Source of the DNA: a virus
Lineage: Duplodnaviria; Caudoviricetes
IMG/VR virus record: IMGVR_UViG_2862784999_000001
Coordinates: 22,584-86,583 of that record
DNA length: 64,000 nt
Direction: 5' to 3' (one strand)
The position numbers and the translations under genes were made by a program. Numbering within the stretch: the first letter of the stretch is position 1; every line of letters begins with the position of its first letter. Below are positions 10,007 to 47,539 of this stretch, piece by piece. Below the pieces are notes generated by a model, which was not told the origin of the DNA, ran no database searches, and saw only the letters and a program-made list of their open reading frames with translations.

Positions 10007-10007
10007 G

Positions 10008-12586: not shown

Positions 12587-12592
12587 AGATCA

Positions 12593-13002: not shown

Positions 13003-13013
13003 GGCGCGGGTCC

Positions 13014-13301: not shown

Positions 13302-13303
13302 CG

Positions 13304-14440: not shown

Positions 14441-14456
14441 GGCGCGGGCTCCTGGG

Positions 14457-14702: not shown

Positions 14703-14720
14703 GGCGCGGGCTCCGTGGGG

Positions 14721-15104: not shown

Positions 15105-15125
15105 GGGCGCGGGCCTTCCGTGGGG

Positions 15126-16782: not shown

Positions 16783-17489
16783 GCTGCCTCCTCGACGAGC
16801 TTCCGCAGCTTGACGAGGTCGGCTTCGAGCCCGCCGTTGTCGCGGTAGTCGATGTAGGCGGCGCCGTCAGCCTGGGAGCGTTCCGGGCTGTTGCAGTCCT
16901 CGTAGACGGCGTCGAGGCTGGCCTTCCCGGCGGCCGGGTGCAGGTGCTCGATGACCATGTCGTCGAGGTAGGTGATCCGTCCCATGCCCTTCCCCCAGTC
17001 GAGCCAGACGAGGTCGAGGCAGAGGTGGACGAGCTGTGGCGGCGCCATGTAGTCCAGCGTCGTGACGATGTCGGAGGTCATTGCGACGGCGGTGGCCATG
17101 GCTTGGCCTTGGAGCAGGTCGTTGCCGTAGACGATGCCGGGGCCGCCGGACAGGCACTCCCGGATCCGGGCGTCCCACGCCATCGTTGCGGCCCGGGGCC
17201 GGTGGTCGTCGCCCATGAAGGCGAGGTACCGGTAGTTGGGGGCGTTCTTCACCGCGGCCTGGTTGAGGGTGCCGCACAGCCGCTTCCGCGCCCAGAACAC
17301 AAACCGCACCCGCTGGTCGTCGGCGAGATCCTTCGCCAGCGCCTTGTACGCGGCAAGCTCCGGATCGTCCTTGTCGACACAGAACAGCAGGTCGGCGGTC
17401 GCCCCGGTGTCGTCCCACGCCTGCACGATCTCGGGCACGGCCTGGGGTCGGCCGCGGGTGGGGATGATGACGAGCAGGTCGTCGGCCAT
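16779..17489 (-). CDS. glycosyltransferase, GT-A fold (family 2-like)
   Basis: VIIPTRGRP, FMGDDH (DxD-like), IEHLHP motifs. Confidence 0.85.
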   Translation of the reverse strand: MADDLLVIIPTRGRPQAVPEIVQAWDDTGATADLLFCVDKDDPELAAYKALAKDLADDQRVRFVFWARKRLCGTLNQAAVKNAPNYRYLAFMGDDHRPRAATMAWDARIRECLSGGPGIVYGNDLLQGQAMATAVAMTSDIVTTLDYMAPPQLVHLCLDLVWLDWGKGMGRITYLDDMVIEHLHPAAGKASLDAVYEDCNSPERSQADGAAYIDYRDNGGLEADLVKLRKLVEEAA

Positions 17490-17501
17490 GGCGCGGGCTC
17501 C

Positions 17502-17789
17502 TCAGTTGATCGTGAAGCGCGGGGATTTGATGACGGGCCGCTCTGGTGGGGCCTGGATGCGCACCCAGGTCCGGTAGGTGCCGGGTCCGGGGTCGATGGC
17601 GCCGTCGGGGCCGATGAGGATCATCGCGACGTGATGCCCGTTGTCGGTGCCCCAGGCGGCGGCATGCCAGTCGCCTGGCTCGGGCCGTTCACCGTCTTCG
17701 AGGACGGCGACCTCGACCGTGTATCCGGCGGGGTCGCCGCTGCCCGCGGTGACGGGGGTCATCAGATATTCGCTGCTCTCGCGTTCCAC
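17502..17789 (-). CDS. small Ig-like/BppU-like virion-associated protein
   Basis: 95 aa, beta-rich, LIGP...GTYRTWVRI...PERPV; directly after the large repeat protein. Confidence 0.55.
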   Translation of the reverse strand: MERESSEYLMTPVTAGSGDPAGYTVEVAVLEDGERPEPGDWHAAAWGTDNGHHVAMILIGPDGAIDPGPGTYRTWVRIQAPPERPVIKSPRFTIN

Positions 17790-17797
17790 CAGACCCC

Positions 17798-20557
17798 CTA
17801 CGTGTGCGGCTGCTGCGCTCTCCAGGAGCTGTACGGCGCGCCGGCTTCATGCCGGGGGCGGAGGGTTCCTGCGGCCCAGCGGGTGCGGGGGGCTCCGGCG
17901 GTGAGCGTGTCGAGTTGTTCGACGGGCCCGGGTCCGGTGACGCCGCCTGCCGCGATGAGGGCTGCGAGGACGGCGAGTTGGCCGGTGATTTTCCGCGTGA
18001 CGGCGGGGGTTGCGCTCGTCGTCGCTGTGACGGCGAGGCTGGCTGTGCTGGTGACGGCGACAGTCCCGCTGGCGGCCAGGCTCGCGGTGGCGGTGAGCGC
18101 GGCGGATCCGTCGCCTGCAGCGGTAACGGTTCCGTCGGCGGTTGCCGTTGCGGTCGCCGCGAGTTGCGCGCCACCCGCGGTGGCAAGGTCACCGTGGGCG
18201 GTCGTGCCCGCGCTGACGTCCAGAGTGTCCGCGGGGGCGGAGGTGCCGAGCGCACCTTCGGCTGCTGTCCCCGCGGTAGCTGTGAGGCTCCCGCCGCTGG
18301 CCGTTGCGCGGGTTCCCGCTGCCGCCGCGGTAGCAGTGGCGTCGAGGAGTCCGTTGCCGGCTGCCGCGGTTTGGCCGTCGGCGATGAGGCCAGCGGTTGC
18401 CGTGAGGCTGGCCGACGATTCGCCTGCCGCGCTGACCGCGCCTGCCGCAGTGGCGGTCGCGGTGGCCGCGAGTACGGCGGCGGCCTGGCTGGACGCTGCC
18501 CCGCCGGCTGCCGCTGTCGCGACGGCGGTCAGGTCTGCCGAGCCTTGTGCGGCTCGAATTCCGTCGCTGGTGGCGGTCGCGGTCGCCGCGAGGTCTGCGG
18601 TGCCGGTTCGGCCGGGAACGCCCGAGGCGGCCAGGCCTGCCACGGCTGCGAGTTCTCCGCCCGCTGTTGCCGCGACTGTGCCGCTGGCGGATCCGGTTGC
18701 GGCGGCGGTGAGGCTGCCAGCCCCGGTCGCTGCACGGTCGCCGCTGCTCGTGGCGGTGGCCGTGACGGCCAGGTCGCCGGCGAGGTCGCGCCCGACGCTG
18801 CCGCTGGCCGCGATGGTTGCTGTACCCGCGAGGCTGCTCGCTCCGGTGCCTGCGACGGCTCCTGCCGAGGTCGCTGTGCCGGTGGCCGCGAGTGCTGCCT
18901 GGCCGCTGGCCGCCCTGGCGCCTGCGCTGCTCGTCGTCGCAGTGACCGCGAGGCTTCCTACTCCGACCGTGCTGGTGGTACCAGCCGCTGTCGGTGCGGC
19001 CGTGGCGGCGAGTGTTGCTGCCCCTGCCGCTGCGGTCATTCCGGCTGCTGTCGGGGATGCGGTGGCGGTGAGCGTGCCAGCGCTGGCCGTTGCAGACGAC
19101 CCGGCGGCCGTGAGGGCTGCGGTCGCGGCGAGCGTGGCGGCACCGGCCGCGTCGCGGGTACCGGTCGCACTGCTGACGGCGGTTGCCGCGAGGGTGGCGC
19201 TGCCTGCCGCGGCAACGGCCCCTGAGGCGGATGCGGTTGCTACTGCGGCGAGGCTTCCACCAGCCGCTGTCGCCCGCTGTCCTGTTGCGGTGGGGCTGGC
19301 GGTCGCGGCGAGCGTCCCGCTGCCCGAGCCGCCGAGAGCGCCGGTTGCTGTCGCGGTGGCGGCGCCGGTGAGGCTTCCGTCGCCGGTGACCGCGTTGACG
19401 GGCACGTACTCGACGAGCGCCCACGCGGTGGAGATGCGGCGGGTAGTGGTCTGAGAGGTGTTGGAGCGGTAGCCGATCTGCGCGTTGGCGAGGGTGGCTG
19501 CCGTCCAGGCGGTGCTGGTCTGCGGATTGCTGTAGGCGGTGAGCTGGTACAGGCGGGGGACGGCCGCTTTGTGCGTCGACCAGCCGTTGACGTTGACGGA
19601 AGTCGACGCGGATTCGGAGACGGTGCCGCCGGACTGGCCTTTGATGCGGGTGACGATGCTCGCTGCGGTGGTGGCGTTGGAGCCGATCCGCACGCCGACG
19701 GAGACGAGGCTGATCGCGTCGGAGGCGCCGATCCCTGCGCTAGTCGGGGAGGTGAGGGTGAAGTCGTCGATCGTGGTGGTGCCCGTGGCGATCGTCGAGT
19801 TGTAGCTGGTCGCGTCGTTGGGCGTGACTTCGTTGACGCGGGTCCAGTTGTTCGCGGCGCCCGCGGTGCCGCCGACGACGGTGGCGAAGCCGTTGTTGTC
19901 GCCCTGCCCTGCGGGCTGGAGGTGGACCACGGTGCCGGGGCCGGGGAGGCCGGTCTGTGCCGTGCCCGTCGTGTCGTTGACGGCGATGTCGTCGATGCAG
20001 ATGTCCAGCGAGTTCGCTGACTGGAGGGCGCCGGCACGGACGCGACTGAACCCGTTGATGTTGGTGCACATCTGGTCGCTGACCAGGGTGCCGTCGATGT
20101 ACAGCTTGAACGCGGAGGTCCCGGCCGTGATCGTGCCCGCGACGTCGTTGAAGTCCGCTTCGATCCGGTACCACTGGCCGATGCTGAGCGGGCTGGTGGC
20201 GGAGCCGAGGTCACTGCTGGCCTGATCGTCGCGGAGGACCAGGCTGCCGTCGGTCTTCAGCCGGATCATGCCGGGGAAGTAGCCGGACTGGCCGATCCCG
20301 TACACATTGCAGTCGGCGGCCGGGAGCGCGTTGATGTACAGGTAGAAGCGGTGGAATGTCCGCATGACGACACCGCTGGTCAGCTGGTGCTCGATGTAGG
20401 ACGTGCCCGCGGTCGGGGTGACGCGCAGGGAGGCCGCGCCGCCGCGGTGGATGCTGGTGGAGATGGCCGGTGAGCCGCCGACGGTGTTGACGTCCTGCGT
20501 CTCGACGAGGGCTGTCACGGACTGGAGCTCGAAGCCGCACGTCCACATCCGCGCCAC
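17798..20557 (-). CDS. 919-aa fibre/adhesin-like protein: lectin/ConA-like N-terminal domains plus about 23 repeats of 20 aa (Ala/Thr/Gly)
   Basis: GTG after GGGAGG; GQWYRIE, KLYIDG, IDDIAV lectin-like motifs; then L-A-A-T-A-T-x-T-A-x-G with 20-aa period. Confidence 0.8.
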   Translation of the reverse strand: MARMWTCGFELQSVTALVETQDVNTVGGSPAISTSIHRGGAASLRVTPTAGTSYIEHQLTSGVVMRTFHRFYLYINALPAADCNVYGIGQSGYFPGMIRLKTDGSLVLRDDQASSDLGSATSPLSIGQWYRIEADFNDVAGTITAGTSAFKLYIDGTLVSDQMCTNINGFSRVRAGALQSANSLDICIDDIAVNDTTGTAQTGLPGPGTVVHLQPAGQGDNNGFATVVGGTAGAANNWTRVNEVTPNDATSYNSTIATGTTTIDDFTLTSPTSAGIGASDAISLVSVGVRIGSNATTAASIVTRIKGQSGGTVSESASTSVNVNGWSTHKAAVPRLYQLTAYSNPQTSTAWTAATLANAQIGYRSNTSQTTTRRISTAWALVEYVPVNAVTGDGSLTGAATATATGALGGSGSGTLAATASPTATGQRATAAGGSLAAVATASASGAVAAAGSATLAATAVSSATGTRDAAGAATLAATAALTAAGSSATASAGTLTATASPTAAGMTAAAGAATLAATAAPTAAGTTSTVGVGSLAVTATTSSAGARAASGQAALAATGTATSAGAVAGTGASSLAGTATIAASGSVGRDLAGDLAVTATATSSGDRAATGAGSLTAAATGSASGTVAATAGGELAAVAGLAASGVPGRTGTADLAATATATSDGIRAAQGSADLTAVATAAAGGAASSQAAAVLAATATATAAGAVSAAGESSASLTATAGLIADGQTAAAGNGLLDATATAAAAGTRATASGGSLTATAGTAAEGALGTSAPADTLDVSAGTTAHGDLATAGGAQLAATATATADGTVTAAGDGSAALTATASLAASGTVAVTSTASLAVTATTSATPAVTRKITGQLAVLAALIAAGGVTGPGPVEQLDTLTAGAPRTRWAAGTLRPRHEAGAPYSSWRAQQPHT

Positions 20558-26262: not shown

Positions 26263-26424
26263 CTACAGCGCCGAGTCGAAGGTGATCGGTCGGACTGGCG
26301 GCCGGTCGGCGCGGACGGTGATCCGGCCTGCGGTGTCGCGGCTGGCCGGCTTGATGGCGGACAGGGGCGTGTGCGGGCGCCGGGCCGGTGGGGCGGAGCG
26401 GCGGGGGATGTCGGTGACGGTCAT
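26263..26424 (-). CDS. small basic hypothetical protein
   Basis: ATG at 26424, 53 aa. Confidence 0.4.
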   Translation of the reverse strand: MTVTDIPRRSAPPARRPHTPLSAIKPASRDTAGRITVRADRPPVRPITFDSAL

Positions 26425-26467
26425 GTCAGCAGTGTGCTCTCGGCTCCTTCTCATCGGGTCCTTTCGG

Positions 26468-26977
26468 TTAGAGCCCACGGCTGTGGGCGAGTTCGGCTGC
26501 GCGTTCGAGGTAGCGGGCGGGGAGTCGGGGGTCGCGCTGGTTGTCGTTCCAGCTGGGGATGGTGTTGGCGTGGGGGAAGTCGCGGCGGATCGCTTCGAGG
26601 AGCACCACGCAGGCGTCGTCGGCCTGGCCGCGACTGTCGGCTGCGGCCTGGATGGCGCCGATGAGGCAGCGGGCGCCCTGCTCGTTTCGCAGCCCTCCGG
26701 TGCACCAGCCGGCTGCGTCGAGGCGGAGCCGGGCGCGGTGGAGGGTGGCGGCGATCGGCGTGGGGTACGGGCAGGGCGCCGCAGTGGGGGTGAGCGGCAA
26801 TGGCGCGGTGATCTCGGGGATGGGGTCGGCGGCGGGGATGTGGGCGGTGTCGACTTCGAAGGTGAGGTTGGCGAGGGTGAGGCGTGCGTCCATGACGAGG
26901 CCCACCTCGACCAGCCGCGCGTCCAGGTCGAGTTCGACCGGGGCGGCGGCTCTCGCGGTCGTGGCGGGCGCGGTCAT
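26468..26977 (-). CDS. DUF6197-like protein
   Basis: L.RA...L...GWC.G......G.RCLIGAI...IPSWND. Confidence 0.7.
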   Translation of the reverse strand: MTAPATTARAAAPVELDLDARLVEVGLVMDARLTLANLTFEVDTAHIPAADPIPEITAPLPLTPTAAPCPYPTPIAATLHRARLRLDAAGWCTGGLRNEQGARCLIGAIQAAADSRGQADDACVVLLEAIRRDFPHANTIPSWNDNQRDPRLPARYLERAAELAHSRGL

Positions 26978-27768
26978 CAGGCGGCGACCTTGGCGGGTGC
27001 TCCGGTGCCCTTGCATTCGGGGCAGACGACGAGGAGTTGTTCGTTGCCGAATGCGGCATGGATCTTGCCGTGGCCGGAGCACTTCCAGCACTTCCCGGCG
27101 GCGATGGCCTTGCCGACGGGCATGAACTTGTTCTGCTTGATCCACTGCTCGTCGGTCATGCCGGAGTCGGTGACGACCTTCGACGGCATCGGCTCGGGCT
27201 GCGGGTCGGCGGCCTGCTTGGCTTCTTCGCTGGCCTGCGCGTACCAGGCGCCGCCGACGCTGCTGCCGCCGTGCTTCTGACGTTCGTGGGTGCGTAGGCC
27301 GGCGGTGGCGGCCTTGGCGTCGCGGTAGCGGGGCTTCTCCTTCTTGCCGCAGGGGCAGGCCCAGCCGAGCAGGCCGGTGCTCTTGTCGGGGCCGAACCGG
27401 CTGGCCTTGTAGACGGCCCACTTAGAGACTCGCTGCTTGGTGGGCTTGGCCGGGCAGCGCTTGGCGCCGGTGAAGGCGCCGCTCTTCTTGTCCTTGGTGT
27501 AGACCTGCCCGAGACCCTTACAGGTGGGGCAGCCTTCATGGGTCAGCTTGAGGATCGCGGCGTTCTTGCGGGAGAGGACGGTGTCGTCATGGTTCTCCAG
27601 CCTCTTCACCGCGAAGAGGACCATCCGGGATCCGATCTGGGCGTGGAGGGGGCCGGTACGGGGGACCTTGACGCGGCCGACGGACTTCTTCCGCGACGAG
27701 GTGCGGGCGGCGGGCTTGCGGCCCTTCGCGGCGGTGCGCCGGGCCGGCTGCTTGCGCTTCGGGGGCAT
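26977..27768 (-). CDS. basic protein with DnaJ-type zinc fingers
   Basis: CPTCKGLG, CWKCSGHG, CPECKGTG plus CPC...H...H; downstream of traB. Confidence 0.75.
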   Translation of the reverse strand: MPPKRKQPARRTAAKGRKPAARTSSRKKSVGRVKVPRTGPLHAQIGSRMVLFAVKRLENHDDTVLSRKNAAILKLTHEGCPTCKGLGQVYTKDKKSGAFTGAKRCPAKPTKQRVSKWAVYKASRFGPDKSTGLLGWACPCGKKEKPRYRDAKAATAGLRTHERQKHGGSSVGGAWYAQASEEAKQAADPQPEPMPSKVVTDSGMTDEQWIKQNKFMPVGKAIAAGKCWKCSGHGKIHAAFGNEQLLVVCPECKGTGAPAKVAA

Positions 27769-27793
27769 GATCGGAACTCCTCTTCAAGAACGT

Positions 27794-27950
27794 CATATAT
27801 ATGGATCAATAGGGTGGCAATGGGCCGTCTTTGGCCCGGCAAGGCCCCGTCTACGGCCCGGCTAGGCGATCAAGGGGATCCGCTGGTAGCCGGGCCATAG
27901 ACGGCCCGAAGACGGGGGTCAGGCGGCCCGAAGACGGGCTTTAGCCGGGT
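27794..27950. repeat. direct and inverted repeat cluster after traB (candidate clt)
   Basis: CCGTCTnnGGCCCGGC twice (27825-27862), inverted copy 27887-27904, CGGCCCGAAGACGGG twice (27902-27938), CATATATATG palindrome at 27794. Confidence 0.55.
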
Positions 27951-29997
27951 CAATGAGCCCCGCAGCGGCCTGCTCGACCGCTCCACGCGACCAACCTCGG
28001 ACCTGCTTGCCGTCCCACTCCTGGCGGGTCGATGCCACCGCTGGCGCATGCTTGCGCAGCACCTGCGCCAGACTCGTCGCATCCAGTTCGAAGCCGGCTT
28101 CGCCAAGCGCGGGCAGCAGTTCCTCGGTCGTCGGCAAGAAGGGCTTCTCCCCGAACGTCCGCAGCAGGAAGGCGACGGTGCGCGCGTCGTCCACGCCGCC
28201 CTGCGCGTCGAGGGCTTCGAGCCGGTCTGCGAGTGAGACCTCGCCCGCCTGGCCGTCTCGGCGGATGACGTGCAGGAGGTCCGCCGCGGCGAGGCTGGCG
28301 TGGTCGAACCAGGGCCGGCCTGCCTGCTCGCGCTCCCTGACGGCCTGCCGGATCTGGTCTCGCTCGAAGCGGTTCCAGCGCCACAGGACGGGCCGGTCGA
28401 AGCCGGGGCCTGCCATATAGAACTTGCCTGCGTCGTAGACGCGTTCGTCATCGACTGCGGGCCGCAGCCGGTCCGGGCGGTAGCCCATGGCGCTGGCTCC
28501 CTTTCCGAGGACGAGGGGAATGTCCTCGCTTCGGGAGGCGAGCATGACGCGGTAGGTGACCGCGCTGGCGATGGCGTCGCCGAGTGAGTCCTGGGTGGCT
28601 TCCTGCGCAGCGAAGATCAGGTAGACGCCGGTCTCCCGACCGATACGGATGATCTCGATGGCGAGGTCTTTGGCCTCCTGCGGCAGGAAGATGAACTCGT
28701 CGACGATGCCGAAGATCGCCGGGTCCTCGGGGGTGGGTTCCCACAGGTCACCCATCTCCTTGGCCGACTTGACCTGGTTGCGGCCGGACGCGATATCGCG
28801 CATCCACCGGAGCTTCTCTGTGCATTCCTTGCCTCCGCGGATGGGCGGCAGGGCCATGACCTCAGAGAACTCGCGGATGCCGTCCTTGACGGGGTCCATC
28901 TCGATGGCGATGGCGTCCCGGCATGCCGTGATTACTTCGGCGAGGCTTCGCAGTGCACCCTTGGTCTTCGCGGACCCGGACGAGCCGATGATCAGCATGA
29001 ACATTCCACGCAGGCGCAGCTCCAGCGATGAACCGTCCATGCAGCGGCCGTAGACCACGGCGTCCCGAACCGAGAGGCTGTTCGGCGCGTGGACCGCAGG
29101 GCGCGGCATGTCGGCGAACGGGTCCGTCTGCACGAGGCGCAGCGTGACGTGGGAGTTGTCGTCGAGGTCCGGCTCGATGAGCGTTCCGCCAGTCCCGATC
29201 CCGAAGTGGGAGTCCAGTTGGTCGGCGACCGCGTTGACCTTGCCGGGGGTGGCTCCCTTGAGGACGACGTCGATCTCCCAGCCCCAGCCGCGGTATCCGA
29301 GGACGCGCACGCTGCGCGTTCCGATGCCCTCCCAGGCAAACGCACGCGAGATGCACTCCTCGACCTGGCCCGGGGACTGGCAGACGGCGAGAGGATAGGG
29401 CTCGTCGGAGTCCGGGTTGTCCTGCTCGGCGATCATCATCTGGGGTGCGATGTCGGGACGCTGGTCGCGGTAACGGCCGTACAGGGTGATGCCGACGCCC
29501 GCCGCGAGACCGGTCACGGTCGGAGGGATCGCGGTGGACAGGCCAACCGCGTCGAGACTGGTGCCCTCAGCGAGCGCGATCCAGCCGGCCAGGTTCAGCC
29601 CGGCGGTGACGCCTCCCGTCCAGCCGAGGAACCGCCACCGGGAGTGCCGCTCCTGCTTGACCTTGTTCCAGTCGGACGACTTCGCCATGCCACCGATGAC
29701 CTCTTGGAGATCGTGGGCGCGGACGTAGCGCCAGCCGAGGAACGAGACGGCCTTCATCCCGATGCTGAAGTAGCGGACGGACAGCCCGGTGAAGCGCGCG
29801 GTCCGGGAAAGGGCGACCATGCTGGCCCCGCCCGCCTTCGCGAGGACGGGCACGCGCGGCTCGTAGGTGGCGACGATGCCGGGCGCGATGTCGTCGACGT
29901 CCTCACCGGAAAGGTCGTCGGGGACTTCGAGCTCGCCCGGGATCACCTTAGACAGGTCCCAGCCGGCGGGGAAGTCGGGGTGCTGATCGAGGCTCAT
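27919..29997 (-). CDS. traB: TraB-like FtsK/SpoIIIE conjugal DNA translocase
   Basis: 692 aa; N-terminal TM segments, GSSGSAKT Walker A, IFGIVDE Walker B, GRETGVYLIFAAQ, C-terminal winged-helix-like region; Streptomyces plasmid TraB architecture. Confidence 0.8.
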   Translation of the reverse strand: MSLDQHPDFPAGWDLSKVIPGELEVPDDLSGEDVDDIAPGIVATYEPRVPVLAKAGGASMVALSRTARFTGLSVRYFSIGMKAVSFLGWRYVRAHDLQEVIGGMAKSSDWNKVKQERHSRWRFLGWTGGVTAGLNLAGWIALAEGTSLDAVGLSTAIPPTVTGLAAGVGITLYGRYRDQRPDIAPQMMIAEQDNPDSDEPYPLAVCQSPGQVEECISRAFAWEGIGTRSVRVLGYRGWGWEIDVVLKGATPGKVNAVADQLDSHFGIGTGGTLIEPDLDDNSHVTLRLVQTDPFADMPRPAVHAPNSLSVRDAVVYGRCMDGSSLELRLRGMFMLIIGSSGSAKTKGALRSLAEVITACRDAIAIEMDPVKDGIREFSEVMALPPIRGGKECTEKLRWMRDIASGRNQVKSAKEMGDLWEPTPEDPAIFGIVDEFIFLPQEAKDLAIEIIRIGRETGVYLIFAAQEATQDSLGDAIASAVTYRVMLASRSEDIPLVLGKGASAMGYRPDRLRPAVDDERVYDAGKFYMAGPGFDRPVLWRWNRFERDQIRQAVREREQAGRPWFDHASLAAADLLHVIRRDGQAGEVSLADRLEALDAQGGVDDARTVAFLLRTFGEKPFLPTTEELLPALGEAGFELDATSLAQVLRKHAPAVASTRQEWDGKQVRGWSRGAVEQAAAGLIDPAKARLRAA

Positions 29998-31325
29998 GAC
30001 GCGTCCTTCTGGCGGGCGTTACGGGTGCGGAGCAGATCGGCGTGCGCGCGTCCCGCGGCACGGTTGTATCGGGGCGTGTCGCCCTTCGTCCGTCGGGGCG
30101 GATTCGGCTTGTAGCCAGAGCGGGGTGTTTGGATCGCACGCTGCGCGTTCGTGGTCTTGCTGAGGGTGCTGACGGGGGTGCCGGTGAGGGCGGCTTCGAC
30201 GCGCTTTTCGGCGGCGCGGCGGGAGCTGATGGACGTGATGGACTCGCCCGGGTCGGTGCCCTCGATGTTGCGGTAGGCGCGCGGCCACACGGCCGAGTCG
30301 TCCGGCTCCTTGCCGAGCGCGGCGCCGATCTTCACGGCCTCCTTCCAGACCTCCGGAAACTCCCGCTGCCGGGTCTCTCGAAGTTCCGTGCGTGCCTTCT
30401 CGGCAGCCTCCCTTGCGACCTTCGCGTCGGCGGCGCGCTGCTTAGCTTCGGCGGCCAGACGCGCGGCCTCGGCGCGCTCGGTCTTGCGCTTCGCTCGCCG
30501 CTCGCGGCGGGTGAGTGCTCCGTCGCGCTTCCGGATGCGGCCGTGCTCGTGGAGATCCCACACACCGGGGCCGGCGACCGAGGCGAAGGCAGTCGCGATG
30601 GCCGTGGCGGGGTCGAAGGCGTTAAGGCCGTGCCACAGGTTGATCGCGGCGGCGATGAACGCGAGGAGCCAGGCGATGAGGCGGTAGTGCCAGTGCGGCC
30701 GGCGGGCGGCTACCGCGGCGGCGGCACCCTTGAGGACGACCCAGGCTCCGCCTTCGAGCATGAGCGGTGCGGCCATCAGCCAGAGGGCGTTGGGGTCGTA
30801 GAACGCGGCGACCTGTACGGGGAGGGCGACGATCGCGCAGACGATGTAGAAGCCGCGGGCGTAGTCGCTCCACTTGTCCTCGGCCTTGGCCTGCTCAGCC
30901 TCGCCAGCCTCGGCCGCGTGCTTCTTCTTCTCGGCGGTCTGCGCCGCTTCCTCGCGAGCCCGGTCGGCGTCCTCCCGTCGCCGGTTGTGTTCGGCGATCC
31001 GCGCTTCGGAGGCGGCCTGTTCTTCGGCTTCCTTCCGCTCGTTGCGGTTGTTGGCGAGGGCGAGCTTCCGTGCTTCCTCGGCGGCCTTGGTGCGGATCGC
31101 TTCGGCTTCGGCTTCGGCGAGAATGCGCGCCTTCTCGACCTCGGCTTCGCTGCGGGCCCGGATCGCTGCGGCCTCGGCGGCAGCAACCAGGTCGACGGCC
31201 GGCTCGGCGGTCTCGACCGGCTGGGGGCTGCTCTGTTCCTTGTCGGGCTGGGTGATGCGCCAGTCCGCGAACTGCACGGCGCGCGGCCTGGTGCTTCCGT
31301 TGGCGATAGACGGGCTGGCGGTCAT
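29994..31325 (-). CDS. Spd/DUF2637-like membrane spread protein
   Basis: Coiled coil, four TM segments (APLMLEGGAWV, AAINLWHG), coiled coil; coupled to traB. Confidence 0.7.
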   Translation of the reverse strand: MTASPSIANGSTRPRAVQFADWRITQPDKEQSSPQPVETAEPAVDLVAAAEAAAIRARSEAEVEKARILAEAEAEAIRTKAAEEARKLALANNRNERKEAEEQAASEARIAEHNRRREDADRAREEAAQTAEKKKHAAEAGEAEQAKAEDKWSDYARGFYIVCAIVALPVQVAAFYDPNALWLMAAPLMLEGGAWVVLKGAAAAVAARRPHWHYRLIAWLLAFIAAAINLWHGLNAFDPATAIATAFASVAGPGVWDLHEHGRIRKRDGALTRRERRAKRKTERAEAARLAAEAKQRAADAKVAREAAEKARTELRETRQREFPEVWKEAVKIGAALGKEPDDSAVWPRAYRNIEGTDPGESITSISSRRAAEKRVEAALTGTPVSTLSKTTNAQRAIQTPRSGYKPNPPRRTKGDTPRYNRAAGRAHADLLRTRNARQKDAS

Positions 31326-31346
31326 GAGACTCGGTGTCCTTTCAGG

Positions 31347-31556
31347 TCAGCCGCGAGTGCGGCGGTCGACGAGGGCGGCGGTGATGCCGAAGACGGCGAA
31401 CAGAACGACGAAACTGCCTGTCGTCACCAGCGGCTTCGGGAGTCCGGCGAGACTGAGGACGACGGTCGTCGCCATGGAGGCGATCACGGACGGGATGAAG
31501 ATCGCGGACATCTGGGGGAGCGGATAGCGGCGCTTGAAGAAGGCGATGATCCGCAT
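31347..31556 (-). CDS. small membrane protein
   Basis: Two TM segments. Confidence 0.6.
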   Translation of the reverse strand: MRIIAFFKRRYPLPQMSAIFIPSVIASMATTVVLSLAGLPKPLVTTGSFVVLFAVFGITAALVDRRTRG

Positions 31557-31557
31557 G

Positions 31558-31761
31558 TCACTCCCCCGTCCTGCGTCGGCTGCGGGTGGAGCGCCAGCCG
31601 AACGGGCCGGGCAGGTCCATCGACGTGGTGCGACGGCCGGTGGACGAGATCGTGTGGCGCGGGCCGGATCCGCCGCCCAACGTGACCGACCAGGAACGCC
31701 GGTTGATGTTGAGCCGGACACCGGGGAAGATCCGGAAGCTCTGGCGGAACGTGATCGGCAT
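31558..31761 (-). CDS. DUF4236-like protein
   Basis: FRQSFRIFPGVRLNIN..S.S.T.G. Confidence 0.75.
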   Translation of the reverse strand: MPITFRQSFRIFPGVRLNINRRSWSVTLGGGSGPRHTISSTGRRTTSMDLPGPFGWRSTRSRRRTGE

Positions 31762-32072
31762 CAGACGCCCGCCGATCCGTGGCTGGTGTGGTCGGTGGCC
31801 ATGCCTTCCAGAACGGCAAGCCGCGCTTGGGTGTGGTTGCGGGTCGCCCGGATCTCGACCGCGCAGCCCTCGACGGAACACCGGTACACCTGCGTCGTGA
31901 CGCCCTTCATGACCGCCATCAGCAGCCAGATGCCAGACGACAACATCGACAGGGCCACGGTGACCAGAGTCAGCGCCCCGACATCATGTACCGCCAGGTT
32001 CGCTACGGTGACGCCGGTGGTCACGCTGATCACCGCGCCGCCCGCCACCTCGGCGGGGTTCAGCTTCTTCAT
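31761..32072 (-). CDS. small membrane protein with C..C/H..H tail
   Basis: Two TM segments, then YRCSVEGC...H..H. Confidence 0.65.
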   Translation of the reverse strand: MKKLNPAEVAGGAVISVTTGVTVANLAVHDVGALTLVTVALSMLSSGIWLLMAVMKGVTTQVYRCSVEGCAVEIRATRNHTQARLAVLEGMATDHTSHGSAGV

Positions 32073-32083
32073 GGGGACCTCTC

Positions 32084-32380
32084 TCAGATGGGCGCGCTGG
32101 TGCGCGCCTTGTGGAATTCGCGAATGAACTCGTCGGTCAGGCCGGAGCCGATCGCGGCTCCGACCGGGCCGATGCCGGTCACGGAGGCGGCCCACAACTC
32201 CAGCCAAGCCGCCCGGAACGCGATGTAGTTGAGGACGGGGCGGGCGGCACGCAGCGGGAACACGACCGCCCCCAGCCCGACCATCACGAGGAGGGCCAGG
32301 AGCCGCACCGTCCACCGGCCCACGAACCGGGCCGCCAGCGTGAGCCGGCCGGGCTTCGCGGTGATCAGATAGGCGTGCAC
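32084..32380 (-). CDS. membrane protein
   Basis: AGGAG RBS; hydrophobic segment. Confidence 0.6.
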   Translation of the reverse strand: MHAYLITAKPGRLTLAARFVGRWTVRLLALLVMVGLGAVVFPLRAARPVLNYIAFRAAWLELWAASVTGIGPVGAAIGSGLTDEFIREFHKARTSAPI

Positions 32381-32399
32381 GGGAAGCTCCTCTCGGCGA

Positions 32400-32996
32400 T
32401 CAGCGGGTGGCGGGGGTTCGGACGGCCGCGTCGAGGGCGTCCCACACGCGTGTGCCGGGTCCGAGGTCGGGGTCGATGACCGTCACCTGCCAGGCGTCGG
32501 CGATCTCCTTCATGGCGTCCCGGCTCACCCCGGCCCAGATCTGGCGGAGGATCCGGGGCGGCAGGTAGGCGCCGAACTCGGTGTACGGCTCGCCGTCCCG
32601 CGTCGTCGCCGTGTAGCCCTGGCCCTGCGGAAGCAGCCACGGATGGGCGATCAGCACGATCACGCCGGCCGCCTCACCCGCCTTGCGGATCCGGGACATG
32701 AGCAGCTCGTCGGCGACCAGACCGGACACGGCCGCCCGCTGCTGCCAGCGCAGACCGTCGAAGCCGACACCGTCGAACCCAGGCTGGGACTGGTCGGTGA
32801 GGAACCCGGCCCGGTTCAGGCGGGCCAGCGTCGGAGCGATCTCGACGGTCTCCTCGGCGGCACCATCCCGGTAGCCGGGCCACATCGACAGCTCGCCGTC
32901 CACCCAGCGGGCCATCAAGTCGGCCAGCTCGGGCAAGGTGCGGGCCCGGCGCCACAGCTTCATGTCGGCTTGGCGCTTACGCCAGTTGGTGAACAT
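32400..32996 (-). CDS. DUF6919-like protein
   Basis: LNRAGFLTDQSQPG...QRAAVSG motif. Confidence 0.7.
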   Translation of the reverse strand: MFTNWRKRQADMKLWRRARTLPELADLMARWVDGELSMWPGYRDGAAEETVEIAPTLARLNRAGFLTDQSQPGFDGVGFDGLRWQQRAAVSGLVADELLMSRIRKAGEAAGVIVLIAHPWLLPQGQGYTATTRDGEPYTEFGAYLPPRILRQIWAGVSRDAMKEIADAWQVTVIDPDLGPGTRVWDALDAAVRTPATR

Positions 32997-33274
32997 CAGG
33001 CGGCCTCGGTCCAGGCGGTGAGCGCGTTCAGCTGGTCGACGAGCCGGGGTCCGAACGGCTGCGCAGCGTCGATCTCCTCGGCCCGGTCGAAGATCGCGGC
33101 CAGGGTCGGGGAGTCGTTCGACCGGTCCGCGGCGATCGCACGAAGCAGGAGCTCGGCGCCCTCGTCGCCGCGGACGGCCTCCCAGGAGTCATCGACCTGG
33201 GTGGCGCGGAGGCCAGCGGAGATCTCCCGGACAGTCGAGGAGACGGTGCGGAGGTCGGCATCGAAAACGAACAT
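32996..33274 (-). CDS. hypothetical protein
   Basis: 92 aa, coupled. Confidence 0.65.
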   Translation of the reverse strand: MFVFDADLRTVSSTVREISAGLRATQVDDSWEAVRGDEGAELLLRAIAADRSNDSPTLAAIFDRAEEIDAAQPFGPRLVDQLNALTAWTEAA

Positions 33275-33629
33275 GGGGGATCACAGACCCTTTCAAGGTC
33301 ACAGGAACAGTCGGGGTAGAGCTGAGGTGGAGAGCCGCGCCGGCGGGTGCCGGGGGGGGAAGGATTTCTCCGCCAGCGCGGCCGTTCAGGGGCCCTACTT
33401 GGGCAAGGGGGTCTCGCTTCGCCGGTTGGCTTCGGCGACCTTCTTCGACATCGCGGCGCGCTCGTCGGCGGTCACCGTCGGCCTGCCACGACGAGGAATC
33501 GGTCCGACTCCAGGTCCATGACGACCTCGACAGGCTGACCAGCCTTGCGGAGCTCGGCCGCCTTCTGCTCGGCCGGCCACGAGCCGCGTGGGCCACCGGC
33601 GGGGAAGCTGTCCAGGATCTCGGCGCCCA

Positions 33630-34031
33630 TCACGCACCCGCCTTCACGGGCCCGTAGGCGGCTGCGAGTTCGGCCGCCTGAGTGATGAGGTCGAGGACGT
33701 CGGCCAGATCCCGGCCGGGCTTCTCCGCCCAGGCGTCGATCTGCGCGAACGGCGCCTTCAAGTGGACCTGGAGGATCTGCTCCATCAGGTCCCGGCCGAC
33801 AACCTGCGTATCCTCGTCGCCGACACCGTTAGCGCGGGCTGCCCGCATAGCTGCGGACAGGTCACGCTCGAAGGTGGGCTCCCAACCGGTCAGCTTCAAA
33901 AGATCGGCAGTCGCCGTCAGGTGTGCGGAGATACTGGCGCCGCTCGGGCGTTCACCGGACACACCGATCCACGTCGCAACCGGGATCCGGAACGACACAG
34001 CCTGCGCGGCGAAAGCGAAGTCAGCCATCAC
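33630..34031 (-). CDS. DUF6197-like protein
   Basis: HLTATADLL...GW...IDAWAEKPGR...DVLDL. Confidence 0.6.
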   Translation of the reverse strand: MMADFAFAAQAVSFRIPVATWIGVSGERPSGASISAHLTATADLLKLTGWEPTFERDLSAAMRAARANGVGDEDTQVVGRDLMEQILQVHLKAPFAQIDAWAEKPGRDLADVLDLITQAAELAAAYGPVKAGA

Positions 34032-34261
34032 GCACCCACCTTCGGCCGGACGTAGGAGGCCAGGTCGTGCGCCAGGCGGTCCGCGGGAGACATCGCCGCG
34101 GTGGGCCTGTCGAGGGCGACGGCCTCGGCGAGGCTGACCGCGACGACCTCCGTGCCGTTGATGACCGCGGTGTCGCCGACGCCCATGCCGGACACGACCC
34201 GCTCGATACGGCGGTGCTCGGCGATGACGGGGCTGGTGTCGACCTCGATCGCGGCGCCCAT
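34028..34261 (-). CDS. hypothetical protein
   Basis: 77 aa, coupled. Confidence 0.55.
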   Translation of the reverse strand: MGAAIEVDTSPVIAEHRRIERVVSGMGVGDTAVINGTEVVAVSLAEAVALDRPTAAMSPADRLAHDLASYVRPKVGA

Positions 34262-34899
34262 CAGACGGCCTTCACGAGGAACAGCACCCCGGCGTCGGCG
34301 AGGATGCCCGCGTTCTCGGCGAGGTTCTGCTGCGCGTTGCTGATCGCGTAGAACTCCGCAGCCGACAGGCTTGCGGCGGGCTTTGCACTCAGCTCGTCGT
34401 AGCGGGCGGCGTTCGTCTTGTAGCGGGCGACGGCCTTCCGCACGGCCTCCGGGGCGGCGGCGCCGGCCATGGCTGCGCGGACAACGGGCAGGTCCGTGGG
34501 GTAGACCGCCGACTCCTCTTCCAGGTCGGTGGTGACCTGGACGGGGCCGACGCCCTGCACGTTCACGGTGAGGATGAGCTCGATGGCCATCCACGTGGAC
34601 GAGCCGTCGGAGGTGCTGCGCTCGACGTGGCGGGCGGTGACGGTGCCGCCGACCCGCTCGAAGATGGCGTTCAGCTCGACCTGCGACCAGACGATGTGGC
34701 GGGTCGCGGTCTCGCCGAGGTCTTCGCGCGGCTGGTAGCTGCCGCGGAAGCCGAGCGCCTTGCCGACCTTGGCGGCCAGCTCGCGCTGCGGGGCGGCCAG
34801 GGCGTGCTCGATGCGGTGCATCGCCTGCACCGCCGCCGGGGGAAGCGGGGAGGTGGGGCGCTGGGCGCCCGCACGGTTCTGTACGATCTGCGTAGCCAC
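34261..34899 (-). CDS. hypothetical protein, first gene of the transfer operon
   Basis: GAGGAG RBS, GTG start, 212 aa. Confidence 0.7.
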   Translation of the reverse strand: MATQIVQNRAGAQRPTSPLPPAAVQAMHRIEHALAAPQRELAAKVGKALGFRGSYQPREDLGETATRHIVWSQVELNAIFERVGGTVTARHVERSTSDGSSTWMAIELILTVNVQGVGPVQVTTDLEEESAVYPTDLPVVRAAMAGAAAPEAVRKAVARYKTNAARYDELSAKPAASLSAAEFYAISNAQQNLAENAGILADAGVLFLVKAV

Positions 34900-35033
34900 A
34901 GGGTCTCCTCGTTAGAGCCTGGTGGTGAGGCCCTGGCCAGGGAGTGGAGTCCCTGAGCTGGGGCCGTTTTCGTTTGTGGGGCGCAGTCGGTGGAGCGACT
35001 GCTGACGCTTTGGGCGGTGGAGCGCCCTCGGCT

Positions 35034-35112
35034 TCAACACCATACTGAAGATGTTCTGAGGCTGTGTCAACACTCTATTGAGAACTGGCGCGTTGACTTC
35101 TACTCTGGCCTC
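35034..35112. promoter_or_regulatory. divergent promoters with operator repeats
   Basis: Minus strand TTGACA-N17-CAGTAT (35070-35042); plus strand TTGAGA-N17-TACTCT (35078-35106) 6 nt before ATG (leaderless); TCAACAC repeated at 35034 and 35067. Confidence 0.7.
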
Positions 35113-35457
35113 ATGACAGATGCGTTCACGGAGTCCCTGGAGGCGAAAGTCGCCGAAGTAGCAGCCATAGACGACCTGCTTGCGCGAGGCCTTGCCGCGC
35201 TCGAAGCCCGCCAGAAACTGGCGTCGAGCGACCAGGACCTCTACGCGATCCAGCAAGCGGCCGTGCAAGGGCTGCGCCCAGGACGCACGTGGGCGGAAGT
35301 CGGAGAACTCTTCGGGCGCAGCTACGCCTGGGCGGAAGCCATCGCCAAGGGGCGGAGTTCGAAGCGGAGCAAGACTGACCATGCCGTCGAGTCAACGCCC
35401 CCCGCGGGCGCGGCAGAAGGACAGCCGACGGACACCGGCACGCCAGATCAGCCGTAG
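35113..35457 (+). CDS. HTH repressor, likely controlling the transfer operon
   Basis: GRTWAEVGELFGRSYAWAEAIA HTH; divergent from the tra operon. Confidence 0.7.
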   Translation: MTDAFTESLEAKVAEVAAIDDLLARGLAALEARQKLASSDQDLYAIQQAAVQGLRPGRTWAEVGELFGRSYAWAEAIAKGRSSKRSKTDHAVESTPPAGAAEGQPTDTGTPDQP

Positions 35458-35529
35458 GTAGACACGGGGGCGACACCGCCTAGCCGTCGCCCCGCCAGAC
35501 CCGAGCGCCACGAGCACGGGAGCCAGATA

Positions 35530-36180
35530 GTGGACGTCGCGACCTGGACAGGCCGTACCGCCTGCCTGCTTCAGCAGGCCATGCGGATGACCAACGAGGA
35601 GTTCGCCGAACGCCTCGGCCTGTCCGACCGAACGATCAGCCGATGGCATTCATCGCCCGCGATGACCCACCGGCCTGAAGTCCAGCAGATCTTGGACCTG
35701 GCATACGAGAGGGCAGGTGAGGCGGTGCACCGACGGTTCGCGCTCCTGATGCGACCAGCCGAGCCGGCTGTTGCCCAGCCAGCTGTTGCGGCGCAGGCGC
35801 TGCGGGTGGCGATAGCAGTCGTACTGCGCGGCGACGAGGTTCTCCTCGTGTGCCGCCGCGGGGACGGGGAGCTGCGCTGGCAGTTCCCGGCCGGCATGGT
35901 CAAGCCGGGCGCGGCGCCGGAGTCGGTGGCGGTGCAGGAGACGCACGGCGAGACCGGCGTGCACTGCACGATCCGCGCGCAGCTCGGCGAGCGCATCCAC
36001 CCGGTGACCGGCGTGGTCGCCTCCTACTTCCTGGCCGATCACCTGGCCGGTGAGGCGTCGAACCGTGATCCGTTGGAGAACGTCGACGTGGCCTGGGTGC
36101 AGCGTTCGGCGTTGACCCGCTTCATTCCGCAGGACCAGATTTTCCCGCCCATCCTGAACGCCCTGGAGGCTGCTGCGTGA
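35530..36180 (+). CDS. XRE-HTH-NUDIX fusion protein
   Basis: MTNEEFAERLGLSDRTISRW HTH plus WQFPAGMVKPGAAPESVAVQETHGETG (degenerate Nudix box). Confidence 0.85.
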   Translation: MDVATWTGRTACLLQQAMRMTNEEFAERLGLSDRTISRWHSSPAMTHRPEVQQILDLAYERAGEAVHRRFALLMRPAEPAVAQPAVAAQALRVAIAVVLRGDEVLLVCRRGDGELRWQFPAGMVKPGAAPESVAVQETHGETGVHCTIRAQLGERIHPVTGVVASYFLADHLAGEASNRDPLENVDVAWVQRSALTRFIPQDQIFPPILNALEAAA

Positions 36181-36590
36181 CGACCGAGACGACGACCGAG
36201 AAGCCTCCCGTATCGGTGGCGATCATCACCGACGGCGGCAAAGTCCTGATGGCGCGCCGCAGGGCCGCGGAGGGCGAGATCTCGTGGGTGTTCCCGGGGG
36301 GCGCGATCGAGGCCGGCGAGTCGCCGGAGCAGGCTGCGGTCCGCGAGGTCGACGAGGAGACCGGGCTGAAGGTCGAGTCGGTCAAGGTGCTCGGCGACCG
36401 GGTGCATCCGAAGAGCGGGGTGCCGATGCACTACGTCGCGGTGCGCCTGGTCGGCGGGGAGGCCCGGGTCGCGGACGATGAGGAGCTCGACGCCGTCGCC
36501 TGGATCACGCACGCCGAGATCGCCGACTACGTGCCCTACGGCCTGTTCGGGCCGGTGCAGGAGTACCTCGACGAGGTCCTGCCGCACTGA
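36177..36590 (+). CDS. NUDIX hydrolase (pSAM2 Pif-like)
   Basis: Intact Nudix box FPGGAIEAGESPEQAAVREVDEETG; RVHPKSG. Confidence 0.9.
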   Translation: MTTETTTEKPPVSVAIITDGGKVLMARRRAAEGEISWVFPGGAIEAGESPEQAAVREVDEETGLKVESVKVLGDRVHPKSGVPMHYVAVRLVGGEARVADDEELDAVAWITHAEIADYVPYGLFGPVQEYLDEVLPH

Positions 36591-42089: not shown

Positions 42090-42452
42090 TCACGAAGCAT
42101 CCCGGCGGGCATAGGCGGCGGCAGCCTCGGCGAGATCGCTCGGTGATACGCCGGAATCAAGGACCTGTTGCACGGCCTCTCGGATGTAGCCGATGCGGCC
42201 AGGCGGCGGCCAGGGCAGGCCCTCCGATTCGCGCCAAGCGCGCCACTCGGCAGGGGTGAAGTCGAGCTTCTCTCGGTTGCACGGCTCGCAAGCCGCAGCC
42301 AAGTTACTCAGGTCGCCCGAGCCTCCCTGCGCAACAGGGATGACGTGGTCCACTTCGGTCGGGAACGGGCCGCCGCAGTATGCGCAGTTGGCATCCAGAA
42401 CCTGGCGACGAACTCGCGCCGGGATGTACCGCAAAGGGTCGGTCATGGTCAT
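42090..42452 (-). CDS. HNH endonuclease
   Basis: CAYCG...DHVIP...GG.....NL..AC..CN..K. Confidence 0.88.
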   Translation of the reverse strand: MTMTDPLRYIPARVRRQVLDANCAYCGGPFPTEVDHVIPVAQGGSGDLSNLAAACEPCNREKLDFTPAEWRAWRESEGLPWPPPGRIGYIREAVQQVLDSGVSPSDLAEAAAAYARRDAS

Positions 42453-47306: not shown

Positions 47307-47539
47307 GCGGCCACCGTCCGGTGCTGCTCGGGCAGGTCGGCGTCGCAGTAGAAGCCGATGCTCAGGTGCATGCCGTGGTCTTCGACGACCCTCCACACCG
47401 CGGTCGCGGTGCAGGCGGGCCGGCCATCCTGCTGGCGCTGGTGGTTGGTGGTGCAGTCGGCGAAGTCGCTGTAGTCGGGCAGCAGCCAGCCGCGGGTGTT
47501 GTGGCGGATACGGGCGGTCGGCTTGCGGCGGCGGGTCAT
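47303..47539 (-). CDS. hypothetical protein
   Basis: 78-aa coupled ORF. Confidence 0.55.
   Translation of the reverse strand: MTRRRKPTARIRHNTRGWLLPDYSDFADCTTNHQRQQDGRPACTATAVWRVVEDHGMHLSIGFYCDADLPEQHRTVAA

Follow-up and report, generated by a model that had tools for sequence, protein, structure and literature searches.

A predicted plasmid-type TraB/Spd module with a clt-like repeat array in temperate Streptomyces phages

The 64-kb window analysed here comprises bases 22584-86583 of IMG/VR record IMGVR_UViG_2862784999_000001, an 86,583-bp virus genome that CheckV rates as complete (hereafter G000; G001-G004 and similar labels denote related records), and it represents most of the 86.6-kb genome of a temperate Streptomyces siphovirus. 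Within the window, the block at 26263-36590 (window coordinates, as throughout) is a leftward operon encoding small membrane proteins, an SpdB2-like protein, a TraB-like translocase and a zinc-finger protein. On the strength of sequence comparison we identify this block as a plasmid-type TraB/Spd module that is native to the phage group and keeps to one slot, with the early/replication genes on one side of it and the late/virion genes on the other. By analogy with the plasmids that carry such modules, we lean towards a function in moving the phage genome between compartments. A preliminary description, made from the letters and their open reading frames (ORFs) without database searches, had listed a leftward operon with membrane proteins, Spd-like and TraB-like proteins, repeats and a zinc finger, and every one of these elements was recovered where it had been placed.

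TraB-like translocase, SpdB2-like protein and clt-like array

The core of the module is made up of two genes and the array that follows them:

27919-29997, minus strand: TraB-like FtsK-family double-stranded DNA (dsDNA) translocase, 692 aa (phrog_12531 'FtsK/SpoIIIE-like', E 1.5e-74)
29994-31325, minus strand: SpdB2-like membrane protein, 443 aa, whose stop overlaps the traB start by 4 nt
27800-27945, no strand assigned: clt-like array in which a CCCGTCT-type repeat occurs three times and, past a spacer, AGACGG follows two to three times in inverted orientation

The translocase is predicted to consist of N-terminal hydrophobic helices, a motor domain with Walker A (GSSGSAKT) and Walker B (VDEF) motifs, and a C-terminal winged helix. 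In protein comparisons it matched plasmid translocases at 202 and 181 bits and a gene of the Streptomyces phage Mildred21 at 244 bits; scores were 35-40 bits against EccC-like host genes and 33.5 bits against pZL12.71c of the plasmid pZL12 (23% identity over 198 aa, E 0.004), and the host FtsK locus gave no match. The matches to plasmid translocases, set against the lack of one to the host FtsK locus, bear out the TraB-like identity that had been proposed for this protein. A profile match to FtsK (2iuu, E 0.005) spanned Walker A and B, and the FtsK motor 2ius_A was the sole structural match with a Z score of at least 8 (Z 10.4, root-mean-square deviation 5.4, 179 aligned residues), residues 206-469 being the only part of the full-length model to give a usable structural match. 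Across a 15-sequence family alignment, positions G338, S340, G341, A343 and K344 of Walker A (residues 338-345) were invariant, as were the catalytic Lys/Thr and Walker B. Towards the N-terminus, Gly/Thr-rich hydrophobic stretches at about residues 120-175 stayed under the hydropathy threshold, and the model places helices at residues 108-145 and 159-179 with a low predicted local distance difference test (pLDDT) score. When the C-terminal 126 residues were folded with 50 sequences, the resulting model had a mean pLDDT of 85.3 and the order helix-strand-helix-helix-strand-strand, and the C-terminal ~105 residues are predicted with high confidence to fold as a winged helix.

Encoded directly upstream, the SpdB2-like protein has an Ala/Glu-rich N-terminus (residues 40-150), judged by eye to be a coiled coil, followed by three hydrophobic segments over the threshold (158-176, 180-198 and 216-234) and a likely fourth, which agrees with its initial description as a Spd-like protein with a coiled coil and four transmembrane (TM) helices. 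This architecture, with an N-terminal coiled coil and TM helices in a protein encoded beside traB, fits the description of SpdB2 in PMC4447253. The protein itself matched DUF2637 weakly, at 16.3 bits and thus under the cut-off of 22.8, and three of its six family members matched this domain, with a best E value of 2.3e-4; the counterpart in plasmid pFP1 is annotated DUF2637. It is also 27% identical (E 6.8e-12) to a 480-aa ORF that precedes traB in plasmid NZ_CP108056.1, and an atlas match to 'putative SpdB2' at 0.86 serves as a lead only. A tblastn search with the 443-aa sequence returned no match in phages and two partial matches in plasmids, a search in which the low-complexity filter probably hides the coiled coil.

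The array extends over about 150 bp between traB and the zinc-finger gene, and its first CCCGTCT-type copy sits within the last codons of traB. It holds five CCGTCT/AGACGG copies per 150 nt, compared with at most two per 150 nt elsewhere in the 86.6-kb record, and only 2 of 1000 random placements gave a cluster of at least five copies. The repeat cluster noted from the letters is thus real and is the densest cluster of this 6-mer in the record. The same layout followed traB in all 24 loci compared, the top 7-mer being present in at least four copies in the 260 nt around the traB stop, and the loci fell into the following motif classes:

CCCGTCT: 9 loci
CGTCTy: 1 locus
CCCGTCC: 2 loci
CCCGGTC: 1 locus
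TGCTCG: 6 loci
TGCTCA: 3 loci
CGTGAC: 2 loci

Compared with G000, the C-terminal 110 aa of TraB were 61-75% identical within its own motif class (8 loci) and 29-49% identical in the other classes (14 loci). The adjacent zinc-finger protein did not follow this division, being 84% identical to that of G000 in L051, a locus of the TGCTCG class, and 51-76% identical within G000's class. By these sequence comparisons, motif class tracks the C-terminal domain of TraB and not the neighbouring zinc-finger protein. All copies of an array change together between classes, which argues for a sequence-specific binding protein, and the co-variation suggests that this protein is TraB, whose winged helix would read the repeats. 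With their matched pairs of TraB C-terminus and motif, the 24 loci amount to a natural experiment in how FtsK-like winged helices recognise DNA.

Transfer sites of plasmids provide tested counterparts of such an array. In pWTY27, clt comprises 16 bp inside traA plus 159 bp, contains 7-bp direct and inverted repeats and is bound by TraA, and in pSVH1 it is helix alpha-3 of the TraB winged helix that recognises 8-bp repeats (both PMC3583192). A similar array follows traB in plasmid NZ_CP108056.1, where CTCTAC occurs six times and the same flanking inverted repeat, CGCAGGTCA...TGACCTGC, is present. No repeat array was found after the FtsK-like genes of pZL12, of its relative NZ_CP108705.1, or of Mildred21. 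As judged from sequence, the layout of the phage array is that of a plasmid clt site.

Position and distribution of the cassette

The cassette lies between two groups of phage genes:

1241-10225, minus strand: late genes (tail tube, HK97 gp10-like head-tail connector, capsid, VG15, SPP1-type portal and large terminase; Pfam)
49082-56237, minus strand: early/replication genes (IstB/DnaC-like, AAA_24, PDDEXK and beta clamp; Pfam)

Since the DNA is ~69% G+C throughout the window, genes were called by third-position G+C and the GC frame plot. The late-gene region as a whole occupies positions 1-10225 on the minus strand, and the tape measure, tail and tyrosine integrase genes lie further left in the record, beyond the window edge. 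The early genes span 49000-60500 on the same strand as the late genes, and cI/cro-type helix-turn-helix (HTH) genes are found at 61247-62188. The genes found at either end of the record have homologues that adjoin each other in the related record G003, which IMG/VR classes as having direct terminal repeats and whose ends share 27 nt, as expected from circular assembly. The record is therefore a whole temperate phage genome rather than a prophage with host flanks, and the label 'prophage' in the preliminary description was not appropriate for this virus contig, although integrated relatives do exist.

Homologues of the translocase form more than 120 protein clusters at 55-93% identity, and all of the named ones are from Streptomyces. 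All six viral-contig loci that were found carry a TraB homologue (61-76% identity), and the SpdB2-like, translocase, basic/zinc-finger and 98-aa membrane protein genes are common to the six. In G001, G002 and G003 (87.5-90.5 kb), which are the three viral records of at least 87 kb, the cassette has AAA_24/PDDEXK-type early genes on one side and the gene for the large terminase subunit (TerL) on the other, and it is oriented along phage transcription. Just one of five related viral records shares the capsid, so the virion module does not define the group, and the terminases are 33-39% identical by tblastn. A further 21 translocase loci were located in species-representative bacterial genomes. 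Seven of these were extended to ~60 kb, and virion genes (portal, prohead protease, capsid, tail tube, tape measure, Dit and terminase) were called in them by homology to the G000-G004 proteomes or by Pfam; in all seven chromosomal Streptomyces loci, phage early genes lay upstream and virion genes downstream of the cassette. The flanks of 17 loci (L040-L056, ±10 kb, 13 of them more than 20 kb long) likewise share phage genes on both sides. Whether homologous blocks occur at the same position in other terminase-bearing prophages had been proposed as a check, and the same slot was found in 3/3 viral records and 7/7 chromosomal prophages. PF20441, the TerL nuclease family, was tried as a terminase marker on 14 genomes and matched in five, with the match shown to be on the traB contig for G007 and G008; the family lacked the sensitivity needed for these terminases, and the flanks were examined by protein comparison and Pfam instead.

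The constant slot bears directly on whether the block could be an independent actinomycete integrative and conjugative element (AICE), or the remnant of one, that was inserted in a prophage and excises and transfers alone. Its content does resemble the transfer and regulation part of an AICE, with tra, spd and nud genes (PMC2440964). However, no integrase, excisionase or Rep family was matched within 26263-36590 in Pfam, PHROG and NCBIfam scans, as the preliminary description had also observed, and the att-like direct repeats that it suggested looking for around the block did not materialize: the search gave only scattered, 65-86% identical pairs in coding DNA, which we judge to be due to chance. 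The slot and orientation are constant in three viral genomes and seven chromosomal prophages with differing virion modules, and the G+C content of the block (0.68-0.70) is the same as that of the rest of the window. We consider an independent AICE very improbable, in agreement with what had been surmised from the letters. The same slot and orientation across relatives with differing virion modules instead mark the cassette as a module that is both portable and native to a mosaic group of temperate Streptomyces phages. DUF6197 paralogues, moreover, occur both in the cassette and in the phage early region.

Another explanation, that the cassette is a decaying plasmid or AICE relic carried along by recombination among temperate phages and without a working function, would account for the lack of an own Rep or Int, for the deviation in Walker A described below, and for the accessory ORFs around the core, which differ between loci. 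It is at odds with the finding that each long locus examined keeps its TraB, SpdB2-like and downstream genes intact and at full length (36-93% identity), with the invariance of the catalytic Lys/Thr and Walker B, and with arrays that are kept in 24/24 loci and whose motif copies change in concert. Intact genes, invariant motifs and retained arrays form the pattern that purifying selection is expected to leave in sequences, and a relic is in our view improbable.

Two further observations concern the distribution of these loci. In one chromosomal relative, G015 (L052 17932-20976, and L073), traB and the tail genes share a strand, and the genes for terminase and portal are on the other. Relatives of the translocase outside Streptomyces, at 34-48% identity, occur in L050 (Catenulispora metagenome-assembled genome, MAG), L057 (Micromonospora MAG) and L058 (Glycomyces), and in L050 a CCCGGTC array follows the translocase gene.

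Relation to known systems and candidate functions

Close parallels in layout, as described, are the conjugative plasmids pWTY27 and pSVH1 (PMC3583192, PMC4447253). Shared with them, as far as the cited texts describe these plasmids, are a ~690-aa translocase that ends in a winged helix (predicted for the phage protein) and whose N-terminal part holds membrane helices (putative in the phage protein), a clt or clt-like site that starts within the 3' end of the tra gene and runs for ~150 bp with 7-8-bp direct and inverted repeats, and an SpdB2-type protein with an N-terminal coiled coil and four TM helices encoded beside traB. In contrast to these plasmids, the phage block has no GntR-type TraR/Kor regulator, and the replicon is an 86.6-kb phage with virion genes rather than a plasmid of 12-14 kb. 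The closest plasmid relatives of TraB that were found are of the pFP1 type (NC_006912.1 and NZ_CP108056.1), at 34-35% identity over the motor. Their gene order, comprising a GntR regulator, small ORFs, a 480-aa DUF2637/SpdB2-like protein, the translocase and a ~257-aa basic protein, has the same core as that of G000, and a DUF6919 homologue is also present in the cassette. They differ in having a longer TraB (863 aa, matching only residues 180-572), GntR regulators in place of the HTH-NUDIX protein, and an extra zinc-binding ORF before traB; where stretches of these plasmids were inspected, the annotation lists no virion genes. AICEs such as pSAM2 (TraSA, Spd, KorSA and the NUDIX protein Pif; PMC2440964) share TraB-type genes, NUDIX genes and prophage-like integration, but unlike them the block is without a Rep of its own (RepSA, RepAM or Prim-Pol), Int, Xis or att borders, the sole integrase being encoded ~40 kb away at the phage end. 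The NUDIX pair is comparable to Pif by its position with the transfer genes only.

The combination of virions and a tra locus on one replicon has a precedent in pZL12 (PMC3583192, PMC4487206), and PMC4447253 (Thoma et al., 2015) notes SpdB2 homologues in phages phiC31 and VWB, citing both phage genome papers. A phage-conjugative hybrid, as the preliminary description put it forward, is therefore not new as an idea, with pZL12 already tested in 2010 and the phiC31 and VWB homologues noted in 2015, and its novelty had been overstated. The pZL12 record (GQ919031, 90,435 bp, circular) holds virion genes, ParAB and an integrase, and just upstream of its late genes it encodes the FtsK-like pZL12.71c, a large ORF, a membrane-protein gene, small ORFs, a NUDIX-like gene and a divergent GntR regulator. 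Zhong et al. 2010 (J Bacteriol) reportedly showed plaques and virions of pZL12 and a cycle as both plasmid and phage. The two replicons are therefore alike in being ~90 kb long with a full virion set, in carrying FtsK-like and membrane-protein genes in the same slot, and in the divergent regulator and NUDIX-like gene. Their translocases, however, are barely related and not orthologous, and only six G000 proteins match pZL12 at E≤1e-3. pZL12 is a plasmid with ParA/ParB, whereas G000 has a tyrosine integrase and relatives in chromosomes, and no ParA or ParB family was matched among the 74, 20 and 8 G000 ORFs scanned, a scan that left out some small ORFs. A plain terminator hairpin follows the FtsK-like gene of pZL12 in place of the repeat array, and the regulator is GntR rather than HTH-NUDIX. 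Relative to pZL12, what is new here is the pFP1/pWTY27-type translocase with its array, the integrase, and a family that is integrated in many chromosomes. In a literature search that left subscription journals largely outside, no description was found of this prophage family, its clt arrays or its motif classes. The gain over the precedents lies in the breadth of the family and in a precise, testable cis site.

A further replicon of the pZL12 type came to light during these comparisons. NZ_CP108705.1 (L038/L039), an 88,191-bp circular plasmid, is a pZL12-type phage-plasmid that encodes ParAB, an integrase and a PhlD-type polyketide synthase, along with a capsid protein 86% identical to the one in the window. 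The TraB described here is absent, and the cassette slot is taken up by a different, distantly related FtsK-like gene of 717 aa (22% identity, E 6e-5).

If the module works as it does in plasmids, the following sequence of events can be envisaged. While the phage genome exists as free dsDNA, either after infection or after excision and replication, the cassette would be expressed from a leftward promoter of its own. TraB would form an FtsK-like ring in the membrane and dock, through its C-terminal winged helix, on the array of 7-8-bp repeats (clt) that starts in the last traB codons. The motor would then pump phage DNA through septal cross-walls, aided by the SpdB2-like protein as a pore and by the small membrane proteins, and pumping into contacting mycelium might also occur. 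The HTH-NUDIX and NUDIX genes may act in a Kor/Pif-like role, in repression or in immunity between donors. We infer DNA binding, pumping, the timing of expression and the outcome (spread within the mycelium, mating, or both) by analogy, and we rate movement of the phage genome between compartments as moderately probable; the likelihood given here and those given for the other explanations are separate estimates and do not form a partition.

Several observations weigh against this mechanism. The best NCBIfam family for the translocase, plasmid_TraB NF041214, scored 37.5 bits against a cut-off of 800, and no Pfam family, FtsK_SpoIIIE (PF01580) included, matched the 692-aa protein at E≤0.01. The plasmid translocases of NZ_CP108056.1 and CP108176.1 and pZL12.71c likewise score just 20-34 bits on NF041214, and the model is therefore narrower than the functional class. 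Walker A is deviant, with Ala where P-loops usually have Gly. The full-length model built from 15 close sequences is poor (mean pLDDT 50), the listed structural matches of the C-terminal model, mostly winged-helix proteins, are weak (Z 4.3-5.5), and a Foldseek search of this model against PDB gave no match at E≤0.001, the best having E≥0.15. Since the motif is physically adjacent to the sequence for the TraB C-terminus, linkage may account for part of their correlation. The array folds as an 18-bp RNA hairpin (z -5.2) without a U tract and could be a transcript element or an operator for another protein. A search of sequencing runs listed six soil/rhizosphere metagenome runs with 5-11% of the words and no RNA run. 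Lastly, the best matches in the phage collection are stand-alone FtsK-like genes of large Streptomyces phages (131-134 kb).

This last point leads to an alternative in which the lytic or lysogenic cycle makes use of the FtsK-like protein and its membrane partners for something other than moving phage DNA between compartments, for example in host chromosome segregation, at sporulation septa, in superinfection exclusion or in genome entry or exit, and in which the array is a transcript hairpin or the operator of another regulator. A homologue annotated FtsK-like, with 31-35% identity over 72-89% of the protein including the N-terminal part, is present in 89 Streptomyces phage records, among them Mildred21, NootNoot and Peebs; the phages listed have sizes of 130-134 kb. 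In Mildred21 the gene stands alone among tRNA genes, with neither an SpdB2-like neighbour nor an array, so a phage FtsK-like protein need not serve transfer. Such a role would also be in keeping with the position of the cassette, in line with leftward phage transcription between early and late genes, with the strong array hairpin and the conserved ATTGATCC-ATAT element that precedes the next gene, and with the weak match of the zinc-finger protein to a 'Q-like antiterminator' PHROG. On the other hand, an SpdB2-like protein, a winged-helix TraB and an array starting inside traB together form the layout of plasmid transfer, as seen in the pFP1-type plasmids, and the motif copies change jointly between classes, tracking TraB rather than the next gene. 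The array is moreover part of the phage genome, an indication that phage DNA is what is moved. Both parts of this alternative, another phage function for the proteins and another role for the array, therefore strike us as rather unlikely, and we continue to favour movement of phage DNA.

A broader proposal extends DNA movement to the family as a whole. Widespread, mosaic temperate Streptomyces phages might be conjugative prophages, each with a plasmid-derived TraB-clt-SpdB2 apparatus and a recognition code of its own, at least five clearly different motifs being matched to different winged helices; they would move dsDNA through septa and between mycelia without virions, and the choice between this route and that by virions would fall, in Pif-like fashion, to the HTH-NUDIX pair. 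We put this forward tentatively, as a proposal with somewhat less than even prospects. If the cassette does work as in plasmids, temperate phages of mycelial bacteria would have a second, particle-free route of spread, which would escape receptor-based resistance; one infection could lysogenise a whole mycelium and its spores, and the spread of a virus in a multicellular bacterium would gain a cell-to-cell route comparable to plasmid spreading. The question also bears on module exchange among prophages, plasmids and AICEs, on the host range of gene transfer in antibiotic producers, and on how pocks and plaques are read.

Other genes of the cassette and of the phage

Outside the core, the block holds the following features:

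26263-26478, minus strand: 71-aa Arg/Pro-rich ORF, the last of the block as first drawn (third-position G+C content, GC3, 0.86)
26468-26995, minus strand: DUF6197 protein, ~175 aa (PF19698, E 2.1e-19; frame from the GC frame plot)
26977-27768, minus strand: 263-aa protein with a basic N-terminus and a DnaJ-type CxxCxGxG zinc finger (PF00684), directly downstream of traB
31347-31559, minus strand: 70-aa protein with two hydrophobic helices by hydropathy, a Spd-like small membrane protein
31558-31761, minus strand: DUF4236 protein, 67 aa (PF14020, E 9.5e-17), with homologues in 5/6 viral loci
31761-32075, minus strand: 104-aa protein with hydrophobic helices (hydropathy)
32084-32380, minus strand: 98-aa membrane protein with one strong hydrophobic segment
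32400-32996, minus strand: DUF6919 protein, 198 aa (PF21897, E 8.9e-36)
32996-34031, minus strand: three small ORFs (92 aa, 32996-33274; 53 aa, 33472-33633; DUF6197 protein of 133 aa, 33630-34031)
34261-34899, minus strand: 212-aa first gene of the leftward operon (GC3 0.94), with a homologue only in L008 among six viral loci
35042-35074, minus strand: promoter-like TTGACA-17-CAGTAT facing the operon, read by eye and weak
35113-35457, plus strand: possible 114-aa ORF with an HTH-like stretch by eye, a candidate small regulator (G+C by codon position 0.72/0.54/0.75)
35530-36180, plus strand: HTH-NUDIX fusion, 216 aa, divergent to the operon (PF00293, E 6.2e-13; weak HTH_3 match at residues 17-39)
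36177-36590, plus strand: NUDIX hydrolase, 137 aa, with a 4-nt overlap with the HTH-NUDIX gene (PF00293, E 1.7e-24)

The zinc-finger gene 3' of traB has a homologue in all six viral loci, and the N-terminal part of its product is 31% identical (E 1.5e-4) to the ORF after traB in plasmid NZ_CP108056.1. The CxxCxGxG finger is evident in the sequence, as the preliminary description had reported; the match to PF00684 (E 8.5e-7, 29.6 bits) stays under the cut-off of 32.7, and a match to phrog_6060 'Q-like' had an E value of 9.8e-8. Just upstream of this gene, at 27780-27815 on the minus strand, 6/6 aligned loci conserve the ATTGATCC-ATAT element together with a purine-rich stretch for ribosome binding, which reads GAGGAG in the window; the element may be a promoter or operator.

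Conservation varies among the remaining genes. The 98-aa membrane protein has homologues in all six viral loci (38-96% identity) and the 53-aa ORF in four, and the DUF6919 protein is 43% identical to an ORF of plasmid NZ_CP108056.1 (E 2.8e-41). A homologue of the DUF6197 protein at 26468-26995 was found only in L008 among the six loci (62% identity). The 71-aa ORF had neither a family match in Pfam, PHROG or NCBIfam nor a homologue in the six viral loci, and the same family scans returned nothing for the 212-aa ORF. The 114-aa ORF had no Pfam match, and its coding bias is moderate only.

Of the regulatory elements proposed from the letters, some stood in part. An own promoter for the operon can be read by eye as TTGACA-17-CAGTAT, but a consensus promoter scan of 34800-35600 listed none above its threshold, so that this point is weak. 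Both NUDIX genes are present and are kept with the cassette in five of the six viral loci; the divergent 'HTH repressor', however, is the N-terminal domain of the first NUDIX protein, since the HTH_3 match lies inside the HTH-NUDIX fusion. Homologues of the fusion gene itself occur in 5/6 viral loci. The second NUDIX protein resembles the pZL12.76c region, which lies inside the tra region of pZL12 (37.5% over 72 aa, E 3.4e-10).

Elsewhere in the record, the left arm (L003, record positions 1-20000) encodes an HTH protein (645-881), an ImmA/IrrE M78 peptidase (2587-3288), an ATP-dependent DNA ligase (5597-6661) beside a DUF6233 gene, and the tyrosine integrase (9062-10366). Across the window and the leftmost 20 kb of the record, no tRNA gene was detected. 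Four DUF6197 paralogues occur in this one phage, two in the cassette region (26468-26995 and 33630-34031) and two in the early region (57592-57960 and 58291-58593). The phage also codes for a DnaN-type beta clamp (55122-56237), a C5-cytosine methyltransferase (46359-47396) and an HNH endonuclease (42090-42452). A stretch of 1.75 kb without a called gene (17789-19539) coincides with the G+C peak of the window (0.736 at 18001-20000). The region that separates the cassette from the terminase holds, at 15317-17489 on the minus strand, genes for an NAD-dependent epimerase/dehydratase and an S-adenosylmethionine (SAM) methyltransferase together with a 236-aa ORF; these may constitute a sugar- or DNA-modification moron, and in the related plasmid NZ_CP108705.1 a glycosyltransferase gene is found beside the capsid gene.

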